From the NCBI GenBank assembly GCA_963714975.1, contig CAVQQD010000002.1, forward strand, positions 448,001 to 512,000: a DNA stretch of 64,000 nucleotides, in the 5' to 3' direction. Numbering within the stretch: the first letter of the stretch is position 1; each line of letters starts with the position of its first letter. Source of the DNA: an uncultured Gammaproteobacteria bacterium (GTDB taxonomy: Bacteria; Pseudomonadota; Gammaproteobacteria; JAURND01). A program made the translations under genes and the position numbers. Positions 17,561-41,704 of this stretch are shown here, piece by piece. A model generated the notes under the pieces. It was not told the DNA's origin. It saw only the letters and a list, made by a program, of their open reading frames with translations, and searched no databases.

Positions 17561-19564
17561 ATGCCAGTTATAGCGAATCATAAGCGTCACCCAAACGATT
17601 TATCGGTTTTCTATGGACTATTAGGGCCCTTTTTCTTATTGTATTCCGTTTACTATTATGGGCGGGTACGATCGTTATCTCTTCCCAAGCTATTAATGCG
17701 CATCCTACCGGGATTCCTTATTACTGGGGCCTTATATTATCAATTCTTCATGGGTAGTTCATTGTTATTTTTCTTCCCGTTGGGGATCGTGACTAGTTTT
17801 GTTTTTCTCGCATTGGCGGAGGGTATCGTTAAGTTACCTAATTTTTCCAGCTTGAAAGAATACTTAGAGTATCCTGAATCGAAACGTTTGTTGTTTTACT
17901 TTCTATTATTGAGTGTACTTTCCGGCTGGTTTAGTTTTGTTTTTGACCCAAGAATTTATTTTGAAGCTGGAATGAATTGGTTGCAGTCTACTGTTGGCAA
18001 TACTCTTTTTGGCAATGTTTTTGGCTGGTTAGTAACAATATTTGTTCTCTCCTGTGCCATTAATCTTTGTAACCGTAGTATAGGCGTGCTCGATAAAGTG
18101 GGTTTCAGGGCACAGGTCAATCAGCTCTATTATTTTTTCCCGCACACGCATCAGCGGTGGGGATTAGTGTTAATTAACGTTTTATTTCCAATAGGAGTAG
18201 CCCTGATGGTGAGTAGGCTGCCGATGCTGGAGCCTTATGCTGTGTATTTATTCTTAGCGACGCTCCCCTTAAATATTGTTAATTATTATGCCAAAAGCAA
18301 ACCTCCTCCCCTGAGCAAAGGTGAAAAATTGTCAATGTCAGGTCCAAATATGGCATCGCGGATGTTAGTTTTTGATAAATCCAACGAAGCTGCTCATATA
18401 TTGAGTATCCCCAACCATGGAAATCAAGCTGCCCGCCGCACTACTAATAGTTTTTTCTCTAGAGTGCTAGGTGGAGAACGTACCGATCAGTTTGAGGGTT
18501 TTACGAAAAAAATGACTCATGCGCTCCGAACGGGGATTGACCATGTTGCAATAGAAGAAAGTAAACACTTAGCAGACTACCAAGGAAATTGTAAATTATT
18601 TTTAAAACAACTGCTTCAGAACATGGAAGATACAGAAAATATTGATAAGACAAAACCCAGCATAAATTTTGTTTCTTCCAGCGGTCATCGCATATTTAGA
18701 GTGAATTTGGGGCAACAATTTATTGTCGGTAATAGAGGCGATGGCTTAGAGGGATCCTATGTGGCTAAAATCTGTAATGTGAGAGATCAAGTGCGTGATA
18801 TCGATCGATATGGCAATTATTTTGGTCAAGATAGCAGTACGGCTGAGGTTATCGAGAGATTAAATATCATTGCAGCGGATAAACCATTTTTTGCCGTTGA
18901 CAATCAAAAGCCGCAGAAACTAAACACTTGTGCCTGGACTAGTCTGAAAGCCTGTTTACAACCAGCCATTATTTTGTTTTATGTGCACTCGATTTTCGAG
19001 AATGTGCAGAATCAAAATGGTACGATCAGTTTACGTAACCCAGAACTTGAAGTGCCATTTGAAATTTTAGATAAGACAAAACCAGATCAGGAGCGTCGGA
19101 AGTTACTTCGAACAGCTTTACAAGCAGTAAACCATGAAGCAAAGCCAACTGATGAGCAATTAACTAATAAGCTGCAGCAAATAAATGCCATTGAGGAAGA
19201 GGCTTATAAGTATTATAAAGCAATTACCAAAGCAACTAGGAAAGAATATGTTTTAGGAATCACGGCAGAGATTTCCAACCCTCAGGATAATGATGCGGAG
19301 GACACATTATACAATACGTATATACTTGCAACTAATAAAAAAAGAAAAAAGGTGATTTCTGCAAAGAATAGAGAAATAGTGGCTGCTTATCTTAACAATC
19401 ACCATGGTCAAGGTGTTGGATTGTTTGGTTATCGTCAAAGCAAACGAGATTTTGAACGAGATTTGGCTCGGGAAGTTTGGGGGGAGCTAGCTAAAGAAGA
19501 GCAGGAGGAAATTCAGCCTCTTCTAACGCCAGGAGCTTTGGCAGCTTGTATGGGACAAAAATAA
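17561..19564 (+). CDS. Hypothetical membrane protein, candidate effector with multi-TM N-terminus and putative Cys-protease-like domain
   Basis: About 7 hydrophobic helices in the first ~245 aa; later SGH, GNRGDG and QKLNTCAW motifs. Confidence 0.55.
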   Translation: MPVIANHKRHPNDLSVFYGLLGPFFLLYSVYYYGRVRSLSLPKLLMRILPGFLITGALYYQFFMGSSLLFFFPLGIVTSFVFLALAEGIVKLPNFSSLKEYLEYPESKRLLFYFLLLSVLSGWFSFVFDPRIYFEAGMNWLQSTVGNTLFGNVFGWLVTIFVLSCAINLCNRSIGVLDKVGFRAQVNQLYYFFPHTHQRWGLVLINVLFPIGVALMVSRLPMLEPYAVYLFLATLPLNIVNYYAKSKPPPLSKGEKLSMSGPNMASRMLVFDKSNEAAHILSIPNHGNQAARRTTNSFFSRVLGGERTDQFEGFTKKMTHALRTGIDHVAIEESKHLADYQGNCKLFLKQLLQNMEDTENIDKTKPSINFVSSSGHRIFRVNLGQQFIVGNRGDGLEGSYVAKICNVRDQVRDIDRYGNYFGQDSSTAEVIERLNIIAADKPFFAVDNQKPQKLNTCAWTSLKACLQPAIILFYVHSIFENVQNQNGTISLRNPELEVPFEILDKTKPDQERRKLLRTALQAVNHEAKPTDEQLTNKLQQINAIEEEAYKYYKAITKATRKEYVLGITAEISNPQDNDAEDTLYNTYILATNKKRKKVISAKNREIVAAYLNNHHGQGVGLFGYRQSKRDFERDLAREVWGELAKEEQEEIQPLLTPGALAACMGQK

Positions 19565-23109: not shown

Positions 23110-24027
23110 ATGGAATTTTTTAGAGCGAACACCCAGATTAATTTTATGGCCCAACGCAAATGGGCGGCGTTATTTTCTATTGTGTTATTTGTCGCTTCAA
23201 TTGTTTCACTCATTGTCCACGGTTTGCATTTTGGTTTAGATTTCACTGGGGGCACCCAAATAGAATTAAGTTATCAACAACCTGTTGATTTAAATACCCT
23301 GCGTGAGAAGTTGAATCAGGCCGGTTTTTCTTCAGCGGTGGTGCAATCTTATGGCACGTCAAAAAATGTGCTCATTCGCATTCCTCCACTAAAAGAAGTT
23401 TCTGAAAGTGCATTAAAAGAGCGAATATTACAGGCATTACCTGGTTCCCAATTTCAACAAATAGAATATATTGGTGCGCAAGTAGGTAGAAGTTTAGTGA
23501 CGAATGGCTTATTGGCTGTGTTGGTTTCATTATTAGCAACGATTGCTTATATTGCTTTTCGTTTTGAACTGCGTTTTGCGGTGAGTGCCGCTGTGGCGCT
23601 TATACATGATCCAATTTTAATTCTCGGTGTTTTTTCGTTTTTCAATCTGCAGTTTGATTTAATTTCTTTAGCCGCTCTTTTAACCTGCATTGGTTATTCC
23701 TTGAATGATACGATTGTGGTATATGATCGGGTTCGGGAAAATTTTCGTAAAATTCGCAAGGGAAGTGCAATTGAGGTAATGAATCAATCAATTAATCAGA
23801 CCTTATCACGAACGATCATGACCTCTGGCTTAACTTTGTTAGTAGTGGTTGCCTTATTAATTTTTGGCGGAGAGATGTTGCGGGGGTTTTCAATTGCTTT
23901 AATCGTCGGTATTGGCGTAGGTACTTATTCTTCCATTTATGTAGCAGGATCTTTGGCAATCGCTTTGGGCTTGGATCGCACCCATTTATTGCCGGCGGCC
24001 AAAAAAGAAGAGGATGGGCTACCCTAG
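23110..24027 (+). CDS. secF: Protein translocase subunit SecF
   Basis: GLDFTGG, GYSLNDTIVVYDRVRE, TLSRTIMTS, GTYSSI. Confidence 0.97.
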   Translation: MEFFRANTQINFMAQRKWAALFSIVLFVASIVSLIVHGLHFGLDFTGGTQIELSYQQPVDLNTLREKLNQAGFSSAVVQSYGTSKNVLIRIPPLKEVSESALKERILQALPGSQFQQIEYIGAQVGRSLVTNGLLAVLVSLLATIAYIAFRFELRFAVSAAVALIHDPILILGVFSFFNLQFDLISLAALLTCIGYSLNDTIVVYDRVRENFRKIRKGSAIEVMNQSINQTLSRTIMTSGLTLLVVVALLIFGGEMLRGFSIALIVGIGVGTYSSIYVAGSLAIALGLDRTHLLPAAKKEEDGLP

Positions 24028-24193
24028 TAATATATTCCTTCTCCCCTTGTGGGAGAAGGTGCCGAAGGCGGATGAGGGGAACCTCCCTCAGAAACTGCTG
24101 GATATTCAGCAGCATTTCGCCTAAGATTTGTCGACCCCGGCATGTGCCGGATGTGCAGTACCTTTGAAAACCTTTTCAAAAGGAAGATGGACC

Positions 24194-24799: not shown

Positions 24800-25366
24800 A
24801 TGCCACCCAAGCGAGATAATCTAATTTGGATTGATTTAGAAATGACCGGGCTTAGCCCCGATCGGGATCGTATCCTTGAAATTGCGACGGTAGTAACAAA
24901 TTCTGATCTCACTGTAGTGGCTGAAGGCCCGGTGATGGCTATCCATCAGCCAGATAGTATCTTAGAAATGATGGATGAATGGAATATCAATCAGCATACT
25001 AAGTCGGGGTTAGTGGTTCGCGTGCAAGCAAGTTTGATCACTGAAGAGCAAGCCCAAGCAGAAACTATTGAATTCCTGATGCAGCACGTTCCCCCAGGAA
25101 GATCCCCGATGTGTGGAAATAGTATTTGCCAGGATCGCCGATTTTTATATCGTTGGATGGGGAAACTCGAGCAATATTTCCATTATCGGAACTTGGATGT
25201 CAGCTCTATAAAAATCTTAGCCCAGCATTGGGCCCCGCAAATATTGCAAGGGGTGAAAAAGGACGTAAAACACCTAGCTCTTGATGATGTCTACCAATCA
25301 ATTGCCGAATTAAGGCATTACCGCCAGAATTTCTTCTTGTTGCCCCCCTTGGAAAAAGAGGGTTAG
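24800..25366 (+). CDS. orn: Oligoribonuclease
   Basis: [41 protein letters not shown]. Confidence 0.97.
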
Positions 25367-25621
25367 GGATTCGTCGTCCCTGCAGGATGCCGGGATCCAT
25401 GCCGGGACGACGAGCCCCCTCTCTCCCCTTTTTAAAGGGGGAATTTCCGCAAAATATTCTAACTTATTGATTCTTAAAGACCATTTATTTTTTATCAAAT
25501 AAAAGTGAAATCTCACTGCCATATACTATAATCTTCCAACGAGGGATGTAAAAAGGATAAAAAATCAGGTATGGAGTGGGAATCCTCAGTCCTAATTAAC
25601 AAAACGTGGAGATTAAAAATT

Positions 25622-25840
25622 ATGTTTACCTATTTAGCTGATGTAGAACTTGACACAATTGTTGGTGGTGGCGGATATGGTGGTGGCCATAAAATGCAAC
25701 AGCCAGCATTGCAAATTACTACATTGAATGTATCTAGTGAATCGAAATCATTCTCTTATTCACAAAGCAGCTCAAGCTTACAGTTCTTTAACTTACAAGT
25801 TGGTAAGACGAATGCAAGTCCTGTTAGTATAACCCTGTAG
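25622..25840 (+). CDS. Double-glycine leader peptide precursor P1 (16-aa leader, 56-aa Ser/Gln-rich core)
   Basis: GGAG RBS; MFTYLADVELDTIVGG leader; adjacent C39 exporter; paralogous to 26315-26527. Confidence 0.85.
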   Translation: MFTYLADVELDTIVGGGGYGGGHKMQQPALQITTLNVSSESKSFSYSQSSSSLQFFNLQVGKTNASPVSITL

Positions 25841-25948
25841 TGATAAATGATTAAACTCCCCCTTAATCCCCCATCCTCTGCGTTGGATGGGGTGGTTAAT
25901 GAGGGGTTCCAAGAAGGTCATATGAACAAAAATTTGGGGGGGTCTTAT

Positions 25949-26194
25949 ATGATAAATACCGTACTTACTGATCATTGTTTAGATACACTGAATGTAGTAG
26001 GAGGAAGAGGGTTTGGATATCACCCGCAACATACTGGCTCACAGAGCTCTGGGCAAACGCCGGTGCAGATAACACACTTACAAATAACCAGTTTCAGCGT
26101 ATCGTTTTCTTTTTCTGTAGCTTTTTCAAGCTTGCAATTTACCAATATTCAAATAGGAAATACAGGTCCCAGTCCAGTGACTATTGCGATTTAG
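25949..26194 (+). CDS. Double-glycine leader peptide precursor P2 (hydrophobic beta-strand core)
   Basis: MINTVLTDHCLDTLNVVGG leader; last 42 aa align without gaps to P1/P3. Confidence 0.8.
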   Translation: MINTVLTDHCLDTLNVVGGRGFGYHPQHTGSQSSGQTPVQITHLQITSFSVSFSFSVAFSSLQFTNIQIGNTGPSPVTIAI

Positions 26195-26314
26195 GTTACG
26201 AAGGCTGATGCCTGGAGTGTGGTAAGGAAGTTTTTTATGGACTCGTGAAGGATCAAATAGGATACGTAGGAATGCTGAGTCCAAAAATGTAGTTAAAATG
26301 TGGAGATTAAAAAT

Positions 26315-26527
26315 ATGTTTACTTATTTAGCTGATGTAGAACTTGACACAATTGTTGGTGGATGGGGAAATCACACACCAAAACAACAACAAGCGTTGCA
26401 GATTACTACACTGAATGTATCTAGTGAATCGAAATCATTCTCTTATTCACAAAGCAGCTCAAGCTTGTCGTTCTTTAACTTACAAATTGGTAAGACGAAT
26501 CCAAGCCCAGTTTCTATAAGCTTATAG
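26315..26527 (+). CDS. Double-glycine leader peptide precursor P3
   Basis: Leader identical to P1, near-identical C-terminal core, same GGAG RBS. Confidence 0.85.
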   Translation: MFTYLADVELDTIVGGWGNHTPKQQQALQITTLNVSSESKSFSYSQSSSSLSFFNLQIGKTNPSPVSISL

Positions 26528-26641
26528 TATTTGGAAATTAACCCCCCCCAATCCCTCTACCCCTTTTCCAAAGGGGGTAGAGAGATTTAAAGGGGAAATA
26601 AATTGAAGCGAATTGTAGTGTCATTAATTGGAGAGACAATC

Positions 26642-26809
26642 ATGATTAAATATTTAAAAGATGTAAAAATGGAAAAATTAGCCGGGGGAGGTGGGTGTAG
26701 GCCAAATCCATGCCGTCCACGTCCACCTATCTGCAAGCCGCCCGTAGTGTGCCAGCCTGTAGCATGTCACCCGGTGTCATGCCATCCCCGTCCTCGCTGC
26801 GGTTATTAA
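26642..26809 (+). CDS. Double-glycine leader peptide precursor P4 (Cys/Pro-rich core)
   Basis: GGAGAG RBS; MIKYLKDVKMEKLAGG leader; 39-aa core with 7 Cys and 11 Pro. Confidence 0.8.
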   Translation: MIKYLKDVKMEKLAGGGGCRPNPCRPRPPICKPPVVCQPVACHPVSCHPRPRCGY

Positions 26810-26821
26810 GGTTGTGAAATT

Positions 26822-26913
26822 CCTTCTTCCGCTTGCGGGAGAGGGTGCCGAAGGCGGGTGAGGGTGTTTGAAATGGCTTCAAGCCACGAAGAACATCCTC
26901 ACCCGCCTTCGGC
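26822..26913. repeat. Family A REP-like doublet between precursors and exporter
   Basis: gccgaaggcgggtgaggg...cctcacccgccttcggc inverted arms, matching the 11960-12022 copy. Confidence 0.75.
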
Positions 26914-27010
26914 ATTTTTCTTCTGAAAAAGTGGTTGATTTATATGAAAGACCCACCTATCATGTGATAGATTTGGAAATTAAACCACACCTACGGGAAA
27001 GGAGTTCTCA

Positions 27011-28276
27011 GTGCAAGACAAACCATTATTCCGTGAAGCTGCTTTAAAGCATTTCTCTTCTCCAGAACAGCTAGATCAACTGATTCAAGTAGTTACTCCT
27101 AGGGCTTGGATTGTGGCAGGGACCCTCTACGCTCTTTTATTCATCATCATTCTCTGGTCCATTATTGGCACCATCCCAACCCGCGGTGAAGGGAAGGGAA
27201 TTTTATTGGCTGGCAATGGTGACATTTATGGCGCTGTGGTTCCCCAGGGACCTAGCCGCGTGAGTAATGTTCTGGTAAAACCTGGGGACAAAGTAGTTAA
27301 AGGCCAAATAGTGGCTACTATGTCTCGACCTGATTTAACCGATCAAATCAAAGTCAGCCAAAATTACGTTGCTGAACTACAAAATAAATATAATCAGTTG
27401 CTGACATTGTCGCGTGGTGCTGTTGCCACTCGGGAGCAGCAAGTTGCTATGCAGCAACAAGCACTGCAGCGCTCTTTAACCGATAGTCAGTCAAAACTGG
27501 ATAACATCAGTGAATTATTATCCATTAAGCAAGGAGCATTTAAAAAAGGCATTGAAACCAGACAAAGCGTTGATCAAACGACCCAGGATTATTATAACGC
27601 TAAAAATATCCTCGAAGGATTTAGAAATCAATTAATTCAATTACATGTAGAAGAACGTAGTTTCATTGATCAATGGAATCAAAGATTGCGAGACCTTGAT
27701 TTAAAGATTGTTGATGAAAAAGTTAAGTTGGCCAACTTGCAAAAAGCATTAATTCTTTCCTCCGATGTTGCCAGTCCTGTTGCCGGTATAGTCACTGGCG
27801 TTCAAGCGACTTTAGGGAGCATTCTGAATACGGGTGATTCTGTCGTGAGTGTTGCTAACGAAGGTCAAGGCTTAGATGCTCTGGTTTATCTTCCCCCACA
27901 AATAGGTAAACGCATTAAGCCTGGGATGAAAGCTTTAGTTGCACCGACTACAGTCGAAAAAGCGGAATATGGCAGTATTTTTGGTCATGTAGTGCGGGTG
28001 GCGGCATTTCCATCAAGTCCCCAAGCAATAGAATCAGTTTTGCAAAATCCTGATTTAGTAAAAGCATTTACCAAAGAAGAATCTCCCATTGAGGTGCGTA
28101 TTCATTTAGAAAAAGATCCCGCTACTTATAGTGGATTAAAATGGTCATCTTCCCGAGGGCCTCAACAAAAAATTACGATGGGTACTTTAGCAACTGCCAT
28201 GGTAACGATACGTGAGCAGGCTCCGATCACTTTGGTGATCCCTGCCTTTAGAAAATTTACTGGAATGGAATATTAA
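27011..28276 (+). CDS. NHLM/NHLP bacteriocin system secretion protein (HlyD-type membrane fusion protein)
   Basis: LFREAALKHFSSPEQLDQLIQV, single TM, coiled coil, EYGSIFG, SGLKWSSSRGP, APITLVIP. Confidence 0.92.
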   Translation: MQDKPLFREAALKHFSSPEQLDQLIQVVTPRAWIVAGTLYALLFIIILWSIIGTIPTRGEGKGILLAGNGDIYGAVVPQGPSRVSNVLVKPGDKVVKGQIVATMSRPDLTDQIKVSQNYVAELQNKYNQLLTLSRGAVATREQQVAMQQQALQRSLTDSQSKLDNISELLSIKQGAFKKGIETRQSVDQTTQDYYNAKNILEGFRNQLIQLHVEERSFIDQWNQRLRDLDLKIVDEKVKLANLQKALILSSDVASPVAGIVTGVQATLGSILNTGDSVVSVANEGQGLDALVYLPPQIGKRIKPGMKALVAPTTVEKAEYGSIFGHVVRVAAFPSSPQAIESVLQNPDLVKAFTKEESPIEVRIHLEKDPATYSGLKWSSSRGPQQKITMGTLATAMVTIREQAPITLVIPAFRKFTGMEY

Positions 28277-28344: not shown

Positions 28345-30576
28345 ATGGAATGTATGGAAAAGTGGTATCGAAGTTTAAAAGCTAAATGGTTGGCTTTAAT
28401 CACGCGTTTTAATAACCAGAAAACGTATGTAAAAACTCCTACCATTTTGCAAATGGAAGCAGCAGAATGTGGTGCTGCAGCACTGGGTATTATACTAGCG
28501 TTTTATGGACGTTATGTCCCTTTAGAAGAATTACGTACTGCTTGTGGTGTGTCACGTGATGGCAGTAAAGCGACGAATATGCTCAAAGCAGCGCGCCGTT
28601 ACGGGTTAAATGCTCAAGGAGCTAAAGTTGAGCCTGAATCTTTTGCCGAACTAAAATTACCGGTTATCGTGTTTTGGGAATTTAATCATTTTGTCGTAGT
28701 GGAAGGTTTTGATCGCCAATGGATTTATCTGAACGATCCTGCTACTGGCCCTCGGACTGTCACCCATGCTGATTTTAATGAATCGTTTACTGGGATTGTC
28801 TTATTATTCGAGCCTTCTGAGCAATTTGAACCCGGTGGGCAGAAATCTAATTTTGTGGAGAGTTTGGTACAACGCCTTAAAGGATTAAAGCATGATTTAG
28901 CTTTTGTCGTGCTAGCCAGTTTAGTCGCTGTGGCGCCTAGCATTGCTATTCCAGGACTTACCAAAATCTTTATTGACCAAATACTCATTCAACATCTGTC
29001 TGGATGGTTGCTGCCGTTGTTATGGGGTCTGCTTATTACTGGGGTTTTTCGTGCACTGGTTTCCTATTTGGAACAAATGTATTTGCTCCGGTTGCAATTA
29101 AAAATGCTGTTGACTTCTTCTGCTCGGTTTATTTGGCATGTGTTGCGGTTACCTTTTGGATTTTTTAGTCAACGTTTTGCTGGAGATATTCAATCGCGTG
29201 TTGAGTCTAATGATCGGCTCTCAGAATGGTTATCTGGGGAATTATCCGCAAGCATGGTCAGCATGTTTAGCATGGTCCTATTTGCGGTGGTGATGTTCCT
29301 TTTTGACTGGGTACTCACGCTAGTTGCCATCGTAATTGCTTCAACCAATGCTTGGTTATTTCTCACTATTTCTCGTGGTATCGAGAACGCAAGTCGGCGC
29401 TTACAACAGGAATTCGGTAAATTAAATGGAATTGAGATGAATGGCTTACAAGCGATTGAAACCATCAAAGCTAGTGGCATAGAAGATGATTTCTTTGAGC
29501 GCTGGTCAGGTTATCATGCTAAGACATTAAATAGCCAACAAAAAATTCACTTATATAGTCGTATCCTGCTCGTCATTCCGCAATTACTCAATGGCTTCAT
29601 GGCTATTATAATCTTGGGTTTAGGTGGCTGGCGGATTATTCAAGGGCATCTCAGTATTGGCGGACTAGTGGCTTTCCAAAGTTTATTGGCTAGTTTCAAT
29701 GCGCCGCTAATGACTTTGATTGGCGCTGGCAATAAATTGCAACAAATTAAAGCTGATATAGCTCGTTTGGATGATGTCCAAAAACATCCAGAAGATTCAC
29801 GTCTTACGATTGAAGAAGCACAAGCTCATCAAGAGCCTTTAAAGGGGCAATTAGAACTTAGCAATATTAATTTCGGTTATTCTCCCTTGGACCCTCCTTT
29901 TATCGAAAACATCAATTTGAATTTGCAGCCTGGAAAGCGCATTGCTATCGTGGGAGCCTCTGGCAGCGGAAAATCTACTTTAGCGAAACTTATTTGTGGC
30001 TTGTATTCTCCTTGGTCCGGTGAAATTTCCTGGGATAATGTTCCGATGACAGCTATTTCTGCGGCAACACTGAGCCGATCTTTGGCATTTGTCGATCAGG
30101 AGGTTTTTTTATTTGAGGGCACCATTCAACAAAATCTTACTTTGTGGAAAAAAGGAGTTTCTTTTAGCATTCTGGAAAGTGCGGTTCATGATAGCTTATT
30201 AGAATCAGTGGTGCTAAATCGCCCGAAAGGGTTGTTCAGCGAAGTCATTACTGCGGGTGCTAATTTTAGTGGTGGACAGCGCCAACAATTGGAAATTGCT
30301 CGAGCTTTAGTGCAAGAACCCGCCATTTTAGTTTTGGATGAAGCCACTTCAGCTCTAGATGCTACTACCGAGCAAGGCATTATGGATAATCTAAAGAAAC
30401 GTAATTGTAGTATGCTGTTAATTGCTCATCGCTTAAGTACCATTCGTGATTGTGATGAAATTATTGTGCTAGAGCAAGGAAGAGTCATTGAACGCGGTAC
30501 CCATGACCAGTTGTTTGGTTTACAGAGTGCCTATCATCATTTAGTCCAAACCGAAGGTGAGATAATTCATGCCTAA
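28345..30576 (+). CDS. NHLM bacteriocin system ABC transporter, C39 peptidase/ATP-binding subunit
   Basis: LQMEAAECGAA (catalytic Cys), FNHFVV (His), LNDPA (Asp); TM domain; GASGSGKS, FSGGQRQ, LDEATSALD. Confidence 0.95.
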   Translation: MECMEKWYRSLKAKWLALITRFNNQKTYVKTPTILQMEAAECGAAALGIILAFYGRYVPLEELRTACGVSRDGSKATNMLKAARRYGLNAQGAKVEPESFAELKLPVIVFWEFNHFVVVEGFDRQWIYLNDPATGPRTVTHADFNESFTGIVLLFEPSEQFEPGGQKSNFVESLVQRLKGLKHDLAFVVLASLVAVAPSIAIPGLTKIFIDQILIQHLSGWLLPLLWGLLITGVFRALVSYLEQMYLLRLQLKMLLTSSARFIWHVLRLPFGFFSQRFAGDIQSRVESNDRLSEWLSGELSASMVSMFSMVLFAVVMFLFDWVLTLVAIVIASTNAWLFLTISRGIENASRRLQQEFGKLNGIEMNGLQAIETIKASGIEDDFFERWSGYHAKTLNSQQKIHLYSRILLVIPQLLNGFMAIIILGLGGWRIIQGHLSIGGLVAFQSLLASFNAPLMTLIGAGNKLQQIKADIARLDDVQKHPEDSRLTIEEAQAHQEPLKGQLELSNINFGYSPLDPPFIENINLNLQPGKRIAIVGASGSGKSTLAKLICGLYSPWSGEISWDNVPMTAISAATLSRSLAFVDQEVFLFEGTIQQNLTLWKKGVSFSILESAVHDSLLESVVLNRPKGLFSEVITAGANFSGGQRQQLEIARALVQEPAILVLDEATSALDATTEQGIMDNLKKRNCSMLLIAHRLSTIRDCDEIIVLEQGRVIERGTHDQLFGLQSAYHHLVQTEGEIIHA

Positions 30577-32725
30577 GAGAAATGAAGACTCCATTGTCAA
30601 CGAAGCCGTGATGCATTTGGCTTCTGTGTTTAGCGAAGAAAATTTTAATGAACCTAGCAGTGAGCAAACAGATGCGCTGTGGATTGCGTGCGAATATATT
30701 TGTCGTGATCTAGCGATGGCTATTCAAAAACCTGCGCGAATTCCTGAACAAGCAAATTATCATAGTTTATTGATGGAAATTGCTCGCGCTTCTTCCTTTC
30801 GAGTTCGCCGCGTAGCGCTAAAAGGGCAGTGGTGGCGTTTTGATAATGGTCCCTTGTTAGTATTTGATGCCAATACTCAATCTCCCCAGGCATTGGTTTT
30901 AGATAAAAAAGGCCAGTACCAATTAATTGATCCGATCACTGGTGACAGACGTTTGGTGGATGAAAAAGTAGCACATGAATTAGCTGGCTTGGGTTATACC
31001 TTTTATAAAAGTTTGGCGAATGCCAAGTTAACCTGGTGGGGATTGCTACGTTTTGCATTCCAAGGACGGACTCGTGATGTTTGGCGAACTTTAGCTTTGC
31101 AAGCGGGTGTGGGTTTGTTCGCACTTTTTATTCCGATTGCGACGGGCATTATTTTAGACATAGCCGTACCCAATGCTAACCTTTCTATCTTAGGTCAATG
31201 GGTAATAGGATTACTGGTTTTCACCCTCGTGGCAGCAATTTTTAATGCCAGCCAAGTTTTGTCATTATTGCGTCTGCGTTTTAAGATGAATGCTTATACC
31301 CAAGGGGCTATTTGGGATCGTTTGTTGCGATTACCGGTAGGTTTTTTTCGTACCTTTACCCCAGGGGATCTTGCTGTAAGAGCCTCGGGTGTTGATACCA
31401 TTCAACAAGATTTGACTGATGCTGCGCTGCAAACCTTACTAAGCGGCGTGTTTTCTATCTTCACTTTTGGGCTGATGATTTATTATTCGTCTTCTTTAGC
31501 GTTGGTTGCATTGGTGTTGTTAGCTTTGTTTGTCGCTGCAATCATTCTGGAAGCTCAAATTGAATTAAAATTTCAGCGTCCGGTAGCAAAATTGGGTGGG
31601 ATGTTAGCTGATTTGATGCTGCAATTTCTCACGAATATCAGTAAATTGCGGGTTTGTCATAGTGAAACCCGGGCCTTTGCAATTTGGGCAAAACAGTTCT
31701 CCAGGAAAAATCGGCTTTTTCTCGGTGCCTCATTGTGGGCCATTCGTTTTTCCATTTTTCGGACCTTGCTGGCAACCTTAGGCATAATTGGCTTATACGG
31801 TTTGGTGGGCAGTAAATTCTCATCTTTGAGTTTTGGTAGTTTTATTGCATTTAATGCGGCTTTTGGGCAATTTTTTGTGTCTGTATTAGGATTGGCGGGA
31901 GTGTTTGCAACGATTATCCGTATCATTCCGCTCTATGAACGTATTCAACCTATTCTGCATGCGCAACCCGAGCGTGATATGGAGGGCATTGATCCAGGAA
32001 TTCTCTCAGGACAAATTCATTTGGAAAAAATAGGTTTTCGTTATCATTCTGAGGATGCTTGGGTTTTGGAAGATATTAATATGCATATTCCTCCCGGTAA
32101 AATGGTTGCTTTTGTAGGTCCGACAGGTAGCGGAAAATCAACTTTATTTCGCTTGTTGTTGGGTTTTGAAACCCCTGTGACTGGAACTGTAGCTTATGAT
32201 TATCAGGATCTCAGTAAGCTTAATTTGCGCATCCTTCGAGAACAGTTAGGGGTAGTGTTGCAAAATGGAGTGTTGATGTATGGAACCATTTTTGAAAATA
32301 TTGTCGGTTCATTTCCTCTGACGCAAGAGCAAGCCTGGGAAGCTGCTGCGATGGCTGGTTTAGCTAAAGATATCGAGGCAATGCCCATGGGGATGCAAAC
32401 GTTAATTGCGGAAGGGGGGACCACCCTGTCGGGTGGACAGCGCCAACGTTTAATGATTGCTCGTGCTTTAGTACATAAACCACGCGTCTTATTTTTAGAT
32501 GAAGCGACTTCTTCTTTGGATAATCCAACCCAGAAAGAAATAATGCAACAGTTAGAGCAATTGAAAATAACGCGAGTTATTGCGGCACATCGCCTGAGTA
32601 CCGTCATTAATGCGGATTGTATTTATGTAATACAAAATGGCAAGGTCTTGCAAAGTGGTACTTATGAAAGTCTCATTGCTGAAAAAGGCTTGTTTTTAGA
32701 ATTGGCAAGTAGGCAATTAATTTAA
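30569..32725 (+). CDS. NHLM bacteriocin system ABC transporter, second ATP-binding subunit (no active peptidase)
   Basis: RRVALKGQWWRFDNGPLL, WDRLLRLP, GPTGSGKS, LSGGQRQRL, DEATSSLD. Confidence 0.93.
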   Translation: MPKRNEDSIVNEAVMHLASVFSEENFNEPSSEQTDALWIACEYICRDLAMAIQKPARIPEQANYHSLLMEIARASSFRVRRVALKGQWWRFDNGPLLVFDANTQSPQALVLDKKGQYQLIDPITGDRRLVDEKVAHELAGLGYTFYKSLANAKLTWWGLLRFAFQGRTRDVWRTLALQAGVGLFALFIPIATGIILDIAVPNANLSILGQWVIGLLVFTLVAAIFNASQVLSLLRLRFKMNAYTQGAIWDRLLRLPVGFFRTFTPGDLAVRASGVDTIQQDLTDAALQTLLSGVFSIFTFGLMIYYSSSLALVALVLLALFVAAIILEAQIELKFQRPVAKLGGMLADLMLQFLTNISKLRVCHSETRAFAIWAKQFSRKNRLFLGASLWAIRFSIFRTLLATLGIIGLYGLVGSKFSSLSFGSFIAFNAAFGQFFVSVLGLAGVFATIIRIIPLYERIQPILHAQPERDMEGIDPGILSGQIHLEKIGFRYHSEDAWVLEDINMHIPPGKMVAFVGPTGSGKSTLFRLLLGFETPVTGTVAYDYQDLSKLNLRILREQLGVVLQNGVLMYGTIFENIVGSFPLTQEQAWEAAAMAGLAKDIEAMPMGMQTLIAEGGTTLSGGQRQRLMIARALVHKPRVLFLDEATSSLDNPTQKEIMQQLEQLKITRVIAAHRLSTVINADCIYVIQNGKVLQSGTYESLIAEKGLFLELASRQLI

Positions 32726-34399: not shown

Positions 34400-37300
34400 G
34401 TGAATGGATTTGTGAGTTTATTGGATCTGATAAGGCAGCGTGCAGCTGAATTTCCTAATCAAATTGCTTATCAATTTGTAACGAGTCATGGTACCTATGA
34501 TTCGCTTACCTATGCTCAATTAGATCACAGAGCCACGGCTGTTGCCGCCGTGTTACGGCAGAGCTCTTGTCAGGGTGAAAGAGCTGTGGTGTTATTACCC
34601 CCTGGCCTAGATTATTTGGTTGCTTTTTTTGGCTGCCTTTATGCGGGCGTCATCGCAGTGCCGGTCTATCCCCCTAGTCGAAATCGACATTCACAAAGAT
34701 TATTTAATATTATTGATGATGCTAAAGTAAATTTTTTTATTACCCATCAAGTTTTTGCTAATCAATATCCAGCAGCTCCCGCGGGGATAAAGATCATTTG
34801 TGTTGATTTAATACCAACGCAAGCTGAGCAAGCAATTCCATCGCTTACTCCAGGTCCTGATGAAATTGCTTTTTTACAATACACTTCGGGTTCGACCAAT
34901 AGCCCTAAGGGGGTTATGGTTAGCTTTGGCAATATCGCTGCTAACTTAGAGGTTCTCAAAAATAATTTTGGTGAACAATGTCATGTGACTTGCTCTTGGC
35001 TACCTCCTTACCATGATATGGGATTAGTCGCGGGAATTATTCTCCCTTTATATCTTAAATCGCGGACTATTTTGATGTCCCCCTCGTATTTTTTGCAGTC
35101 ACCTGTGCGCTGGTTGGAAATTATTTCCAAGGAAAAAGTAGTTCTAAGTGGGGCGCCTAATTTTGCCTATGATTTATGTGTCAAAAAAATTCAGGCTGAG
35201 CAATTACGAAATCTCGATCTAAGTTGCTGGAAATATGCAGTCAATGGTGCGGAAGTCGTTCGACAAGCTACAATACAACATTTTATTGATACCTTCGCGG
35301 TGGCAGGTTTTGCTCCGGAAAGAATCTATCCTTGCTATGGTTTAGCTGAAGCAACTTTGATGCTGACAGGTAAAAAAGCTGCTGCAATCACCCATTCATT
35401 ACCATTACTGAAGACAGAATTAGAACGTGGGCAAGTGGTTATAGCTACTGAAGAAAATGCAGAAAATGTGGTGAATTTTGTTTCTTGCGGCGTAGCTCAA
35501 AAAGATCATGATATTTGCATAGTCGATCCGCACACGCATAAACCTCTTCCAGAGCGAAGCTGGGGAGAAATATGGGCCTGTGGTCCCAGCATTGCTAAAG
35601 GTTATTTTAATAAGCCAGAAATGACAGAAACAATTTTTCATGCTGAATTAACTGAGCCTGTTGCCGGGAAGGAATCAAATTCCTATATGCGTACCGGTGA
35701 TTTAGGTTTTATTTATCAGAATGAGCTTTATGTTGGTGGGCGTATCAAGGACCTGATTATTATTAAAGGATTAAACTATTATCCAGAAGATATTGAATTA
35801 ACTGCCACTGCTAGTCATCCTGCATTTGTACCACATGGGGCCGCTGCTTTTTCTGTAGTGGTTGAAAATGAGGAGCATTTAGTAGTTTTGCAGGAAGTTG
35901 CCCGGGATCAATTACATAAAATTGATGTTGCAGCGGCCTTGCGTGCTATCGAAGTGGCTTTGTTAAATGAGTATGGGCTGCAAGCTTACAGTATTGTGCT
36001 CATTAAACCCCATTCTCTTGCAAAAACTTCCAGTGGGAAAATTCAGCGGTGGGTATGTCGAAGTGAATTTTTAACTAATTCACTACGTGTCCTTGCTACC
36101 TCTCACGCTGCTAACGAAGTTAATCACTCCAACTGCGAAACTTATGAGGCAACGCGAGCTTGGTTAGTCGCTTGGTTTGCTCAGCAATTGCGTGTCTCTG
36201 AGAGTGAAATTAGTGGCAGGGATTTGCATGAATTAGAATTTAGCTCTTTAACAGCCGCTGAATTAGCTAGTGAATTGTCTAATCGATTTGGTAAACGCTT
36301 TGAAATTACTAGCCTACTAGAGCAACCTTCTTTAGAAGATTTAAGCCGATTTATCACGAATCATGGAGTAGCGAAAAATGTTCAGCAAAAGAGCTCAGTA
36401 GAGATCGCAGAAAAATCTTTAGTAAAACCTTTAGACCCAGATTTATTGAGTGCAGTAAAAGATATTTACTTCAAGGTAAATGCTGGAATTTCAGCTAACA
36501 ATACTATCATTGATGGTTCGCAGTATATTAATTTTTCAGGTTACAACTATTTGGGAATGTCCGGCGATGCTCAAGTGACTGCCGCTGTGGTGGCTGCCAT
36601 TCAAGAATTTGGCACCTCAGTTTCTGCGAGTCGTTTAGTCTCTGGAGAAAAACCTTTACATCATCAATTAGAAAATGCCATTTCAAAATTAATCGGGACA
36701 GATGAGACTGCGGTTTTATCTTCGGGATATGCCACTAATTTAGCCGTGATTACCCATTTATTTGGTCCGGGAGATTTGGTTATTTACGATGCCTTAGCTC
36801 ATAACAGTATTTTGCAAGGAGCGCAATTTTCAGGCGCTACTTGCATGGCTTTCCCTCATAATGATATAGGAGCATTAGAAGCAATATTGGAGAAGAAACG
36901 CGATCAATATAGGCGGGTATTAATCGTATCCGAAGGGGTATTTAGTATGGATGGCGATATCTGTGAGGCAACAGCATTAATTGCCATTAAAAAAAGATTT
37001 CAATGCTTTCTCATGTTAGATGAGGCCCATTCCATGGGGGTTATTGGCAATACTGGTTGTGGAATCCGTGAATATTACAATCTTAATCCTAAGGATGTGG
37101 ACATATGGATGGGAACTCTGAGTAAATCATTTGCAAGTTGTGGAGGCTATATTTCAGGTAGTTCTGAATTAATTGAAAACTTTAAATATAGTTCAGCTGG
37201 GTTTGTCTATTCAGCTGGTATTTCTCCTGCTAATACTGCGGCAGCTTTTGCTGCAGTTGAGCTCATGAGACAACAACCGGAGCGGATTAATAATTTACAA

Positions 37301-37579
37301 CAACGTCATTCCTTATTATTGTCTTTATTAAGGAAGGCCAGTATTCCAACCGGCAAGAGTAGTGACACTCCGATAATTCCGCTGATGGCAGGATCAACAG
37401 AGGGGGCAATTAAATTGAGTTCTTATTTAAAGACCTGTTACATCAATGCCTTGCCGATTTTTTATCCAGCTGTTGAAAAAACTTTGGCTCGGGTCAGACT
37501 ATTTGTGAACTGTTTACATACTGAAGAACAAGTGCATTATACAGCTGATGCTATTATTGCGGGCTATCAAACATTATGA
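34400..37579 (+). CDS. Fatty acyl-AMP ligase - ACP - alpha-oxoamine synthase (SPT/AONS-type) fusion
   Basis: FAAL: QYTSGSTNSPKG, WLPPYHDMGL, YGLAE, RTGDLG, KTSSGKIQR; ACP-like EFSSLTAAEL; PLP domain YNYLG, HNSI, VFSMDGD, DEAHS, GTLSKSF. Confidence 0.9.
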   Translation: MNGFVSLLDLIRQRAAEFPNQIAYQFVTSHGTYDSLTYAQLDHRATAVAAVLRQSSCQGERAVVLLPPGLDYLVAFFGCLYAGVIAVPVYPPSRNRHSQRLFNIIDDAKVNFFITHQVFANQYPAAPAGIKIICVDLIPTQAEQAIPSLTPGPDEIAFLQYTSGSTNSPKGVMVSFGNIAANLEVLKNNFGEQCHVTCSWLPPYHDMGLVAGIILPLYLKSRTILMSPSYFLQSPVRWLEIISKEKVVLSGAPNFAYDLCVKKIQAEQLRNLDLSCWKYAVNGAEVVRQATIQHFIDTFAVAGFAPERIYPCYGLAEATLMLTGKKAAAITHSLPLLKTELERGQVVIATEENAENVVNFVSCGVAQKDHDICIVDPHTHKPLPERSWGEIWACGPSIAKGYFNKPEMTETIFHAELTEPVAGKESNSYMRTGDLGFIYQNELYVGGRIKDLIIIKGLNYYPEDIELTATASHPAFVPHGAAAFSVVVENEEHLVVLQEVARDQLHKIDVAAALRAIEVALLNEYGLQAYSIVLIKPHSLAKTSSGKIQRWVCRSEFLTNSLRVLATSHAANEVNHSNCETYEATRAWLVAWFAQQLRVSESEISGRDLHELEFSSLTAAELASELSNRFGKRFEITSLLEQPSLEDLSRFITNHGVAKNVQQKSSVEIAEKSLVKPLDPDLLSAVKDIYFKVNAGISANNTIIDGSQYINFSGYNYLGMSGDAQVTAAVVAAIQEFGTSVSASRLVSGEKPLHHQLENAISKLIGTDETAVLSSGYATNLAVITHLFGPGDLVIYDALAHNSILQGAQFSGATCMAFPHNDIGALEAILEKKRDQYRRVLIVSEGVFSMDGDICEATALIAIKKRFQCFLMLDEAHSMGVIGNTGCGIREYYNLNPKDVDIWMGTLSKSFASCGGYISGSSELIENFKYSSAGFVYSAGISPANTAAAFAAVELMRQQPERINNLQQRHSLLLSLLRKASIPTGKSSDTPIIPLMAGSTEGAIKLSSYLKTCYINALPIFYPAVEKTLARVRLFVNCLHTEEQVHYTADAIIAGYQTL

Positions 37580-38232
37580 ATAAAAATCTCTATTCAAACC
37601 AAGTAGTCAACAATGATGGCTGCAGTCCTAGATTATTTGCTAATCCTATTTTAGAGCGTTTAAGTTGTACCTTACCAAGAACCCTATTTTTTGCTTACGC
37701 GCCGCTGGTAGTTTTTTTTCTGTACCAATCTACTAGGCAATGTGCTTATGGGAAAACTGTATTAATTTTTTGTCTAGGTATCTTTCTTTGGAGCTTTGTT
37801 GAGTATTTAATTCATCGTTTTGTTTTCCATTATGTGCCTACACAATCAAAGTGGGAAAAAATAAACCCGCTTTTTTATGGCAATTTTATTCACAACATTC
37901 ATCACGCTTACCCGAAAGATCCCTTGCGGTTGGTGACCCCGTTGGTAGTTACTTTACCCTTAGCAGTAATTTTTTATGGGTTATTTCATATTATATTCGC
38001 TAGCTATGCTCCAGGATTATTTGCTGGTTTTTTGCTAGGGTACCTTGGCTATGATTTGTTGCACGCGTTTACTCATGTTGCTCCTATGCGCAGCCGCTTA
38101 GGGAGATTTTTGAAGCGTTACCATATGCAGCACCATTACTTAGTAGAATACCAATCATTTGGGGTCAGTAGTCCTTTATGGGACTATATTTTTAATACTG
38201 TTCAATCAAAACCTAATAAGAACAGTAAATAA
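37576..38232 (+). CDS. Fatty acid hydroxylase / sterol desaturase family (FA2H/Scs7-like)
   Basis: His boxes EYLIHRFVFH, HNIHH, YDLLHAFTH, HMQHH; FGVSSPLWD. Confidence 0.88.
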   Translation: MNKNLYSNQVVNNDGCSPRLFANPILERLSCTLPRTLFFAYAPLVVFFLYQSTRQCAYGKTVLIFCLGIFLWSFVEYLIHRFVFHYVPTQSKWEKINPLFYGNFIHNIHHAYPKDPLRLVTPLVVTLPLAVIFYGLFHIIFASYAPGLFAGFLLGYLGYDLLHAFTHVAPMRSRLGRFLKRYHMQHHYLVEYQSFGVSSPLWDYIFNTVQSKPNKNSK

Positions 38233-38247
38233 TTGAGGTAAACTGCG

Positions 38248-39375
38248 ATGTCCATCCAAATCGTTCCAGTTAGTTCAAGACAACATTGGAAGCATTTTCT
38301 ACAATTACCAAACGTGTTACATCAACATGATCCCAATTGGGTTCCCCCCTTACAAATTTCAGTCAAAAATATTTTAAATCACAAAAATCCTTTTTTTAAA
38401 CGGGCTAAAGTGCAATATTGGTTGGCTTATCAGCATGAAAAACCTGTAGCGCGTATAGCTGGTATTATTAATGAGGTACATAACGAATTTCACGAAGAAA
38501 AAGTGGCCTTTTGGGGCTATTTTGAGTCTATAGATAATACTCAAGTAGCAGCGCAACTGTTTGTTGCATTGTCACATTGGGTAAGTGGATATGGAATAAC
38601 CACTTTGCGTGGACCAGTCAATCTTTCTACTAATTACGAATGTGGTATGCAAATATCTGCTTTTGACACTAAGCCTTTTGTGATGACGCAGCAGAATCCC
38701 GCCTATTATCCTCACTTGATCGAGTCTTTAGGTTTTGTTAAAGTCAAAGATTTAGAAGCCTGGAAAATGGATCATAAAACAGCAAAATTGGATCCGCGAT
38801 TGTTGGAACGGACAAAAAAATTTGCACAAATGAATGCTATTACAATTCGAACTATTCGCTTAGATCAATTTGATCAGGAAATTTCCGCAATTTATCATTG
38901 TTACAACGATGCTTGGGAACGAAATTGGGGATTTGTCCCCATGCCAAAGGATGAATTTTTATTTCTCGCCAAAGAAATGAAGAGCATTCTTATGCCAGAA
39001 TTTTGTTTTATTATAGAGGTCGCTGGGGAAGTTGCTGGTTTTTCTATCTGGTTGCCCGATATTAATCAGATAGTCATTAAAATTCGGGATGGAAAGTTAT
39101 TTCCTACAGGGTTGTTCAAGCTATTCTGGTATTCGAAAGTACGCAAGGTAATCAATCAAGGAAGAATTATTGCTTTAGGAGTTCGAAAAAAATTTCGACA
39201 TTTAAACTTAGGTTCATTGTTATATAATAAATATTTTGAAACGCTCCCGGCGGCAGGTTACCCAATCAGTGAATGCTCTTGGGTATTAGAGGATAATGAG
39301 GCAATGCGGACTGCGTTGCAGTTTATGAATGGGGAAGTGTATAAGCATTATCGGCTATATGAAAAAGCAATATAA
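38248..39375 (+). CDS. GNAT-fold N-acyltransferase (bacterial ceramide synthase-like)
   Basis: DPNWVPPL, RGPVNLSTNYECG, NPAYY, WERNWGFVP, LPDIN, SWVLEDN; context after SPT-like gene. Confidence 0.75.
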   Translation: MSIQIVPVSSRQHWKHFLQLPNVLHQHDPNWVPPLQISVKNILNHKNPFFKRAKVQYWLAYQHEKPVARIAGIINEVHNEFHEEKVAFWGYFESIDNTQVAAQLFVALSHWVSGYGITTLRGPVNLSTNYECGMQISAFDTKPFVMTQQNPAYYPHLIESLGFVKVKDLEAWKMDHKTAKLDPRLLERTKKFAQMNAITIRTIRLDQFDQEISAIYHCYNDAWERNWGFVPMPKDEFLFLAKEMKSILMPEFCFIIEVAGEVAGFSIWLPDINQIVIKIRDGKLFPTGLFKLFWYSKVRKVINQGRIIALGVRKKFRHLNLGSLLYNKYFETLPAAGYPISECSWVLEDNEAMRTALQFMNGEVYKHYRLYEKAI

Positions 39376-39378
39376 CTT

Positions 39379-40371: not shown

Positions 40372-40733
40372 AAAAATTTCTTGAGAAATTATATTGGGCA
40401 ACTGTTTTTTCTTTGCGGGGATTGCGTGCTGCTTGGCATTTTCAATGGGCATTTCGGTTGGAAGTTTTGGCCTTTATCTGTGGCATACCTTTGGCTATTT
40501 ATTTTGGACACGAGACCTGGCAAAAATTTATTTTAATATTTTCTTTGCTTTGGATATTAGTAGCAGAACTGCTTAATAGCGCGATTGAAACGATAGTGGA
40601 TCGCATTGGAACAGATCATCATGAATTATCAGGCCGAGCAAAAAATCTGGGGTCAGCTGCGGTATTCATTTTGGTATTAAATGCTTTGCTCACTTGGGGG
40701 ATTATTTTATTGGGAAACCCCCCTTCTCTCTAA
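40362..40733 (+). CDS. dgkA: Diacylglycerol kinase (DgkA family)
   Basis: AFRLE, ELLNSAIETIVD, LSGRAKNLGSAAV. Confidence 0.9.
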   Translation: MVVKKFLEKLYWATVFSLRGLRAAWHFQWAFRLEVLAFICGIPLAIYFGHETWQKFILIFSLLWILVAELLNSAIETIVDRIGTDHHELSGRAKNLGSAAVFILVLNALLTWGIILLGNPPSL

Positions 40734-40744
40734 CCCTCTCCCAC

Positions 40745-41602: not shown

Positions 41603-41704
41603 GGGCTTTGGTACCTTCGAAATTAGGAGAGAATTATAGCGCTTATCTTTGCTTCGTCAATCCTATATAATCCGTTAACCAATTATCGTTAAGAGGAGAA
41701 TGCT

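Follow-up and report, generated by a model that had tools for sequence, protein, structure and literature searches.

The 64,000-nucleotide stretch of DNA analysed here (the window) was taken from contig CAVQQD010000002.1, forward-strand positions 448,001 to 512,000, of the assembly GCA_963714975.1, which represents an uncultured Gammaproteobacteria bacterium. It contains four small open reading frames (ORFs) on the forward strand, P1 to P4, the products of which are probably double-glycine peptides secreted by the exporter encoded immediately downstream of them. The order of the locus is orn, the four small ORFs, three large exporter genes and a convergent yihY/BrkB gene. An earlier note on this DNA, made from its letters alone, had singled out P1, P2 and P3 as precursors that share an amyloid-like beta core, with P1 and P3 as major subunits and P2 as a nucleator. 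The peptide and exporter genes are listed below, where the lengths of leader and mature peptide assume cleavage after the Gly-Gly pair.

25622..25840, + strand: P1, a precursor of 72 amino acids (16-residue leader and 56-residue mature peptide with a 42-residue core)
25949..26194, + strand: P2, a precursor of 81 amino acids (19-residue leader and 62-residue uncharged mature peptide with a hydrophobic-faced core)
26315..26527, + strand: P3, a precursor of 70 amino acids (mature peptide of 54), a close paralogue of P1 with the same leader
26642..26809, + strand: P4, a precursor of 55 amino acids (16-residue double-glycine leader and 39-residue mature peptide rich in Cys and Pro)
27011..28276, + strand: HlyD-type membrane-fusion (adaptor) protein (TIGR03794, 292 bits against a cut-off of 156.2; Pfam HlyD_3)
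28345..30576, + strand: ABC1, an ATP-binding cassette (ABC) exporter that has a C39 leader peptidase at its N-terminus (TIGR03796, 1011 bits against a cut-off of 853.3)
30569..32725, + strand: ABC2, a second ABC permease/ATPase (TIGR03797, 820.4 bits against a cut-off of 709.4)

A short leader closing with Gly-Gly stands at the start of each of the four precursors. It is identical in P1 and P3, MFTYLADVELDTIVGG (16 residues), in which hydrophobic residues occupy positions -4, -7, -12 and -15, Glu is found at -8 and the Gly pair stands at the end; this spacing is that of the classical double-glycine consensus. The leader of P4, MIKYLKDVKMEKLAGG, is also of 16 residues and keeps the hydrophobic spacing. 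That of P2, MINTVLTDHCLDTLNVVGG, is 19 residues long and, when aligned to P1, carries two extra residues between LDT and VGG, which bring Thr to -7 and Asp to -12. Because this insertion shifts the consensus spacing, cleavage of the P2 leader is less certain, and its departure from the pattern bears on any role of P2 as a co-secreted nucleator. The start of P2 is itself uncertain: its frame is open from 25847, with ATG codons at 25922 and 25949, the latter giving the 81-residue form that begins MINTV. A double-glycine regular expression, run over the whole genome of origin (G000; 93.75% complete), returned 63 matches, among which we regard P1, P3 and P4 alone as credible double-glycine peptides; P2 escapes the expression owing to its insertion. 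Models of the NHLP (TIGR03793) and Nif11 (TIGR03798) leaders gave no match in this genome at E <= 0.1, the former being a weak negative since the TIGR03793 control was silent. With no NHLP or Nif11 leader and no other credible double-glycine peptide found in the genome, P1 to P4 are the evident cargo of the exporter.

The first model of the exporter, TIGR03794, stands in NCBIfam for the HlyD-type secretion protein of the NHLP bacteriocin system. In ABC1, the Peptidase_C39 domain of Pfam covers residues 31-159 (E 1.2e-36), and the translation contains Q36, C42, H115 and D131, which we take to sit in the expected C39 catalytic motifs; Pfam matched no C39 domain in ABC2. A gene for TolC is present elsewhere in the genome (G000:C2:334912-336171; 287.8 bits against a cut-off of 225.15). 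The cassette of TIGR03794, TIGR03796 and TIGR03797 was defined by Haft et al. through its co-occurrence with NHLP and Nif11 precursors, and its purpose is given, in the available text of that report, as leader cleavage and product export (PMC2887384). A second cassette of the NHLP type (HlyD, ABC1 and ABC2) occurs in the same genome at G000:C3:732712-738786 (- strand), beside a large nonribosomal peptide synthetase gene, and is preceded by a 145-residue cyclic-nucleotide-binding protein that falls below the threshold of TIGR03896 (bacteriocin-type transport-associated).

For P1 to P4, the C39 domain of ABC1 would cut after the Gly-Gly pair, at residue 16 in P1, P3 and P4 and at residue 19 in P2, and ABC1, ABC2, the HlyD-type adaptor and TolC would together pass the mature peptides (56, 62, 54 and 39 residues) out of the cell. 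The peptides would most likely be exported unmodified, as happens with class II microcins and with other bacteriocin-like peptides of the double-glycine kind. Judged from the sequence, double-glycine cleavage and type I secretion of all four by the adjacent cassette are likely. Removal of the leader during export had been proposed in the earlier note, and agrees with the double-glycine leaders and with the place of their genes immediately before that of an ABC exporter in which a C39 peptidase domain is found. For the interpretation of P1 to P3, the decisive context is this adjoining exporter, together with P4 and the frame of the class II microcins.

As had been claimed, P1, P2 and P3 can be aligned over their C-terminal 42 residues with no gap, the identities being 23/42 between P1 and P2, 38/42 between P1 and P3 and 24/42 between P2 and P3; over the full length of the precursors 34 columns are invariant, and BLASTP related P1 to P2 at E 5e-12. 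The close likeness of P3 to P1, also stated before, thus holds for the core and extends to the leader. When the genome of origin was searched in six frames with P1, exactly three places were found, namely P1 itself, P3 (1.4e-30) and P2 (4.5e-10). The cores are free of Cys and contain very few charged residues (3/42 in P1, 0/42 in P2 and 3/42 in P3), with 12, 8 and 14 Ser residues, respectively, and the mature peptides as a whole are rich in Ser, Thr, Gln and Asn and nearly or fully uncharged. They terminate in SPVSITL (P1), SPVTIAI (P2) and SPVSISL (P3); the lack of Cys, the scarcity of charge and the conserved SPV-x-I-x-(L/I) end were all correctly read in the earlier note.

The alternating S-x-S-x pattern described for the cores was also found, in the segment of core positions 9-21. 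The odd positions of this segment read SSSSSSS in P1 and P3 and SSSSSAS in P2, and the even positions EKFYQS in P1 and P3 against FVFFVF in P2, which bears out the exchange of polar for hydrophobic residues on one face of P2. In composition-preserving shuffles, a ladder of seven Ser residues at i,i+2 arose in 13/20000 shuffles of P1 and 47/20000 of P3, and the strict alternation of Ser, Thr or Ala with hydrophobic residues over 13 residues of P2 in 2/20000. The hydrophobic moment of the whole core at 180 degrees was not significant, and the periodicity, which is amphipathic and of the beta type, is therefore segmental rather than global. AlphaFold2, supplied with the three-row alignment, gave a mean predicted local distance difference test (pLDDT) value of 50.6 for P1 and 37.2 for P2, with core strands as the sole secondary structure drawn, values too low to support a search by fold. 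The prediction of a complex of three P1 cores with one P2 core, run without controls, scored 0.02, which speaks on neither side of the question of binding. A crude scan for aggregation hot spots, on a rough scale, marked 31 contiguous residues of the P2 core and three to four segments in P1 and P3. Mature P1 to P3 lack Cys, bear little or no charge, abound in Ser, Thr, Gln and Asn and include a 13-residue strand with one face of Ser throughout; on these grounds they would be predicted to function extracellularly as oligomers of beta-sheet.

P1 to P3 are real coding genes under purifying selection. The cores of P1 and P3 have a ratio of non-synonymous to synonymous substitution rates (dN/dS) of 0.24, their differences being synonymous in 7 cases and non-synonymous in 7. 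For P1 and P2, saturation has been reached at synonymous sites and dN is 0.44, with no insertion or deletion and with frame and length intact. A GGAG motif is present 10 nt upstream of P1. Contigs from soil metatranscriptomes (three runs from three studies) are 99-100% identical to positions 25606-25830, 26016-26166, 26177-26327 and 26506-26638; that of 225 nt spans 25606-25830 with 0 differences, and one run that is probably of DNA covers 25906-26175. The shares of words in these runs were small (0.05-0.15), and the runs were picked using the locus sequence itself; the contigs from RNA libraries hint at no more than the presence, and perhaps the expression, of the locus in soil. Other features around the peptide genes are the following.

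24800-25366: orn (RNase_T), left neighbour of the peptide array
25505..25532, + strand: promoter-like site (GTGAAA, 16-nt spacer, TATAAT), ~90 nt upstream of P1, with 10/12 matches by consensus only
25863..25899, + strand: stem-loop right after the P1 stop codon, without a T-run, from folding against shuffles
26550..26587, + strand: stem-loop right after the P3 stop codon, without a T-run, from folding against shuffles

Promoter-like sites number 9 in the region, against 3.5 +/- 1.9 in shuffles. The fold behind P1 (25838-25915) has a minimum free energy of -29.6 kcal/mol (z -3.56; 0/200 shuffles as stable) and that behind P3 (26525-26600) one of -30.3 kcal/mol (z -2.62; 2/200 shuffles as stable); unlike P1 and P3, P2 is followed by no stable hairpin, and a scan of the region detected no site resembling an intrinsic terminator. 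The two hairpins could stabilize, or partially terminate, the transcripts of both polar paralogues. The peptide block has a G+C content of 0.38-0.39, compared with 0.42-0.45 in the flanks and the genome, and is bracketed by dispersed short repeats at 25367-25420 (before P1) and 26829-26885 (after P4), for which 31 and 48 blast matches, respectively, were counted in the genome, self included. A palindromic element with one frame reading ...EKVPKADEG... is situated at 24014-24124 and recurs near the YcaO locus described below.

The core family is an orphan; the kind of system to which it belongs is already known. No Pfam or NCBIfam family was matched by P1 to P3 even at E <= 10. A word-indexed search with P1 retrieved only P1 and P3 themselves (2/2 candidates), and a profile search of 1.84 billion representative proteins gave three matches at E <= 0.001: P3, P2 and a 1052-residue protein (P0004) with 12 perfect copies of a ~84-residue unit, each copy of which matches the P1 core at 12/25 positions (SxxYSQxSxSLQF...SP; 24 bits). 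This protein was rejected as a relative, the match being one of chance inflated by the summing of identical repeats. Of 61 genomes (60 relatives plus the genome of origin), matches at E <= 1 were seen in 19, the best outside the genome of origin having an E value of 0.029, with frames broken or unrelated; one unpublished relative, G046, contributed a row at noise level only. Neither the 31 pattern matches in genome contigs nor the 155 in metagenome contigs included one that was confirmed, and weak matches in three cyanobacterial genomes, antisense to a response-regulator gene, were discarded as noise. With a language-model feature search, the cluster nearest to P1 was that of the cyanobacterial tandem bacteriocins (CTB; score 0.90), with 160 shared features, whereas true members typically share 170; a query with only mature P2 yielded nothing of use. 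Membership of CTB (NF038167, cut-off 32 bits) was nonetheless rejected: P1 to P3 did not match the model at E <= 10, the genome of origin had no match where the Nostoc control had 5 above cut-off, and profile-profile comparison with the Nostoc CTB array by hhalign returned a probability of 0.2%. A literature search by topic words, the literature not being searchable by sequence, found no paper on the P1 to P3 family.

The mature part of P4 (CRPNPCRPRPPICKPPVVC...) is unrelated to P1 to P3 and contains 7 Cys residues, spaced 4-6 apart, and 13 Pro residues. No homologue was found for it, the only match being a weak one to Keratin_B2_2 (keratin high-sulfur) at E 0.14. P4 may be a secreted peptide that is rich in disulfides or binds metal.

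Within the bacterial family, TIGR03794 was found above its cut-off in 5/9 genomes searched, the genome of origin included. Two members of the family that belong to another genus, G002 and G006, possess cassettes that are 57-66% identical to the present one, arranged in the order ABC1-ABC2-peptides-HlyD, and these carry four or five tandem double-glycine peptides (L027 10940-11684; L028 4102-5972). One leader in G002, where the cassette is 58-62% identical, is MMTYICDVELKTVAGG and matches that of P1 at 10/16 positions. The cores of the two arrays are shared among themselves and are unrelated to those of P1 to P3 (...STKIITKGF...QNGVASTGGS..., summarized as ...Q-x-x-VASTGG...); against the CTB model the peptides of G006 scored no better than sub-threshold, as was seen in 4/8 of the relatives' peptides scanned. 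The arrays are flanked by acyl-CoA dehydrogenase and riboflavin genes, and no modifying enzymes were found beside them. The conservation of exporter and leader with replacement of the cargo argues for a leader that functions as an export signal and for arrays that are self-sufficient. When genome contigs were queried with the HlyD-type protein, only 4 remote loci emerged (27-40% identity), from cyanobacteria or Chloroflexota, and none had double-glycine peptides next to it.

Searches with Pfam and NCBIfam models found no peptide-modifying enzyme in the locus or anywhere in the window. At the level of the genome, no SagB-type dehydrogenase was detected, with a control that responded, and no LanB or LanC, a weak negative because the controls for these responded nowhere. 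The genome does have three YcaO genes. A tandem stand-alone pair (G000:C2:711534-714015; L044) lies ~238 kb away, beside an ankyrin-repeat protein and with no visible precursor, and a YcaO-TfuA pair of the thioamidation type is found on another contig (G000:C3:471697-474424; L045) beside a thiopurine S-methyltransferase. The YcaO genes scored 67-79 bits against the SagD cut-off of 219.

Two other explanations bear on whether the peptides are functional and whether they are modified. The view that P1 to P3 are chance ORFs or decaying remnants with no functional product draws on their lack of any homologue outside the genome of origin and of any family match, and is most improbable given three paralogues with a dN/dS of 0.24 that kept frame and length despite saturated dS, canonical leaders, ribosome-binding motifs, a position before a dedicated exporter and identical pieces in RNA libraries from three studies. 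The other holds that the Ser/Thr-rich cores of P1 to P3 and the Cys-rich core of P4 are those of peptides made by ribosomes and modified after translation (RiPPs), heterocyclised or thioamidated before export by enzymes encoded elsewhere, such as the tandem YcaO pair. The exporter family was indeed defined, according to the available text, via precursors of thiazole/oxazole-modified microcins and lanthipeptides, with cores rich in Cys, Ser, Thr and Gly (PMC2887384); the cores of P1 to P3 are ~31-40% Ser/Thr, P4 offers its 7 Cys, and one of the YcaO loci is a tandem pair in want of a precursor. However, these YcaO genes are remote from the locus and far below the SagD cut-off, SagB was not found and neither, with the weak controls, were LanB and LanC, and the arrays of the relatives are likewise devoid of neighbouring enzymes. 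Moreover, there is no long leader of the NHLP or Nif11 kind, one of 16 residues would leave little room for a recognition element, and strictly alternating, conserved Ser residues beside varied partners would better fit a structural face than sites of modification. Modification before export is thus a quite unlikely explanation.

Among the roles that the secreted peptides might have outside the cell, microcin-type antagonism between bacteria is tentatively ranked first. The frame of the class II microcins, as outlined in the available text of PMC12219008, comprises a small pre-peptide whose signal is of the double-glycine kind, an ABC transporter that includes a peptidase, a fusion protein and TolC, and validated microcins are there accompanied by an adjacent membrane immunity protein. 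This last feature was not seen at the present locus: no small transmembrane (immunity-type) ORF of at least 25 amino acids was found in 25300-27100, where hydropathy over 19 residues peaked in a Cys-rich frame that runs antisense within P2. The lack of a transmembrane immunity gene in the locus weakens a purely bacteriocin reading, and it is not the only point to weigh against export of unmodified, microcin-like peptides: the processing of P2 is less certain given its atypical leader; the family is without relatives, so that comparative tests are impossible; the RNA-library contigs are no proof of transcription, the runs having been chosen by this very sequence; and the genome, only 93.75% complete, has three YcaO genes, while the cassette type was first tied, in the available text, to modified peptides (PMC2887384). 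A more specific and rather improbable version is that of a multi-peptide bacteriocin, in which P1 and P3 would complement P2 in the manner of two-peptide class IIb bacteriocins, all being needed for action on a target envelope, perhaps in mixed amphipathic beta-sheet pores, with P4 as a separate toxin. It would account for divergent but length-matched paralogues side by side in one array, tandem related double-glycine peptides recur in the relatives and in the cyanobacterial CTB family, and the Ser/hydrophobic alternation of P2 resembles what might be a membrane-spanning beta-strand. Besides the missing immunity gene, however, the peptides lack the net positive charge that membrane-active peptides usually carry, and we know of no beta-sheet two-peptide bacteriocin.

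Self-assembly into fibres or a matrix is possible as a second role, one that would not exclude antagonism, and it is considered less likely than the latter. As a functional amyloid, P1 and P3 would be the polar subunits and P2 the nucleator or the core of the fibre after leader removal, serving adhesion or biofilm formation, and an antibacterial role would be compatible with this; such a system is somewhat doubtful. The idea stays alive because no immunity gene was found, the cores are uncharged and Ser-laddered, and one paralogue is hydrophobic-faced. The rarity of the Ser ladder and of the P2 alternation in shuffles, the total absence of charge from the P2 core, the length kept without insertion or deletion although dS is saturated, and the rough hot-spot scan all speak in its favour, and stable hairpins after P1 and P3 but not P2 would fit a higher output of the former. 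Precedents exist for amyloid among double-glycine peptides: of the four double-glycine-motif proteins EbfG1-4, EbfG1-3 are described as amyloid-prone, with a division of labour like that of CsgA and CsgB proposed for the set (PMC9981879), and the Acinetobacter microcin MccAB1 is described as forming amyloid fibres that build biofilm independently of killing, in a report that also cites MccE492 as amyloid-forming in vitro (PMC13188072). On the other side, the AlphaFold2 models are of low confidence, the cores have no internal repeat or beta-arch motif of the curli/Fap kind, the genome has neither CsgG nor a Curlin repeat, and the locus has no chaperone or anchoring gene. P4 does not fit, the atypical leader may reduce export of P2, and any hydrophobic beta-prone peptide will score as aggregation-prone. 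Full turnover of cargo between genera with the same exporter is more typical of antagonism genes, yet matrix peptides of the EbfG type are also poorly conserved.

The analogy with curli and Fap drawn in the earlier note held in part: a split into subunit and nucleator has its double-glycine precedent, whereas membership fails for want of a Curlin repeat, CsgG and any family match. CsgG (PF03783) gave 0 matches in the genome, which is 93.75% complete, with a control that responded in 4/14 genomes including E. coli, and the Curlin repeat (PF07012) gave 0 matches in the genome and none by Pfam in P1 to P3, with a control that responded in E. coli; curli as the family of P1 to P3 is excluded by these negatives. 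A new type of functional amyloid served by type I secretion, in which the leader would act as an assembly inhibitor cut at export and P2 would template P1 and P3 with no chaperone, anchor or channel of the curli/Fap type, is more doubtful still than a fibre-forming role in general.

The wider window contains further genes. A cluster of lipid type at 34400-42748 includes a 1059-residue fusion of a fatty acyl-AMP ligase, a carrier domain and an 8-amino-7-oxononanoate/serine-palmitoyltransferase-like enzyme, followed by a fatty-acid hydroxylase, an unassigned 375-residue ORF, an NAD epimerase/reductase, a PAP2 phosphatase and a zinc alcohol dehydrogenase. Two large ORFs, 6591-9539 (+; 982 amino acids) and 17561-19564 (+; 667 amino acids), gave no family match in Pfam or NCBIfam under the thresholds applied. 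Mobile-element genes encode a DDE transposase at 10019-11425 (-), a PD-(D/E)XK family transposase at 12180-13145 (+) and, at 59781-60953 (-), an IS605 OrfB/TnpB-like protein that carries a TNB domain of Cas12f-like type.

If the peptides were simply microcin-like, they would add an uncharged, Ser-laddered orphan cargo family to a class that is now thought to be widespread. If they formed amyloid, a Gram-negative soil bacterium would possess a minimal fibre system, complete in itself and based on an orphan fold, and the locus would join EbfG and MccAB1/MccE492 as a third, compact case in which double-glycine secretion supplies fibre assembly; its three natural paralogues would then provide a ready test of subunit and nucleator specialization and of leader-gated assembly. 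A modular pattern is also seen within one bacterial family, with exporter and leader conserved and cores swapped wholesale. Cores of 42 residues are within reach of chemical synthesis, so that an answer could be had at little cost.

Compared with known systems, P1 to P4 share the exporter families (TIGR03794, TIGR03796 and TIGR03797) and the logic of Gly-Gly cleavage with the NHLP and Nif11 RiPP precursors; these have leader domains of ~70 residues, against 16-19 residues in P1 to P4, and P1 to P4 differ further in that no modifying enzyme is clustered with the peptides. CTB are tandem double-glycine peptides of 70-100 residues with polar, Ser-rich cores, like P1 to P3. The likeness to curli (CsgA/CsgB) and Fap is an analogy of design only, consisting in secreted, Gln/Asn/Ser-rich beta peptides and the possible pairing of a subunit with an aggregation-prone paralogue; P1 to P3 match no Fap family, contain no internal imperfect repeat of the curli/Fap kind and would be exported by a type I ABC system with double-glycine cleavage, in contrast to the Sec pathway and outer-membrane channel of curli and Fap. 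EbfG1-4 and PteB of Synechococcus elongatus, with which P1 to P3 were compared by description, present four double-glycine proteins from one operon and a C39-type transporter, as do P1 to P4; the available text of these reports describes no immunity gene, some of the proteins as amyloid-prone and a proposed split into nucleator and subunit (PMC9981879, PMC4997328). The EbfG hot-spot motif A-[FI]-N-I-[GS] is loosely echoed in P1 to P3 by F-[FT]-N-[LI]-Q; the two systems belong to different phyla, and it is in the present one that the exporter adjoins the peptides. With the class II microcins (MccV, MccE492, MccAB1 and others), P1 to P4 have in common a double-glycine signal of 15-19 residues, a neighbouring peptidase ABC transporter and membrane-fusion protein, TolC in the genome and no modifying enzyme nearby, and MccE492 and MccAB1 are among those reported to form amyloid. 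They are set apart from that class by a three-gene exporter of the NHLP type with a second ABC subunit in place of a CvaAB-like pair, by four cargo genes in a row, and by the orphan cores of P1 to P3, which are rich in Ser and Gln/Asn rather than Gly/Ala and have no GAV-type motif.

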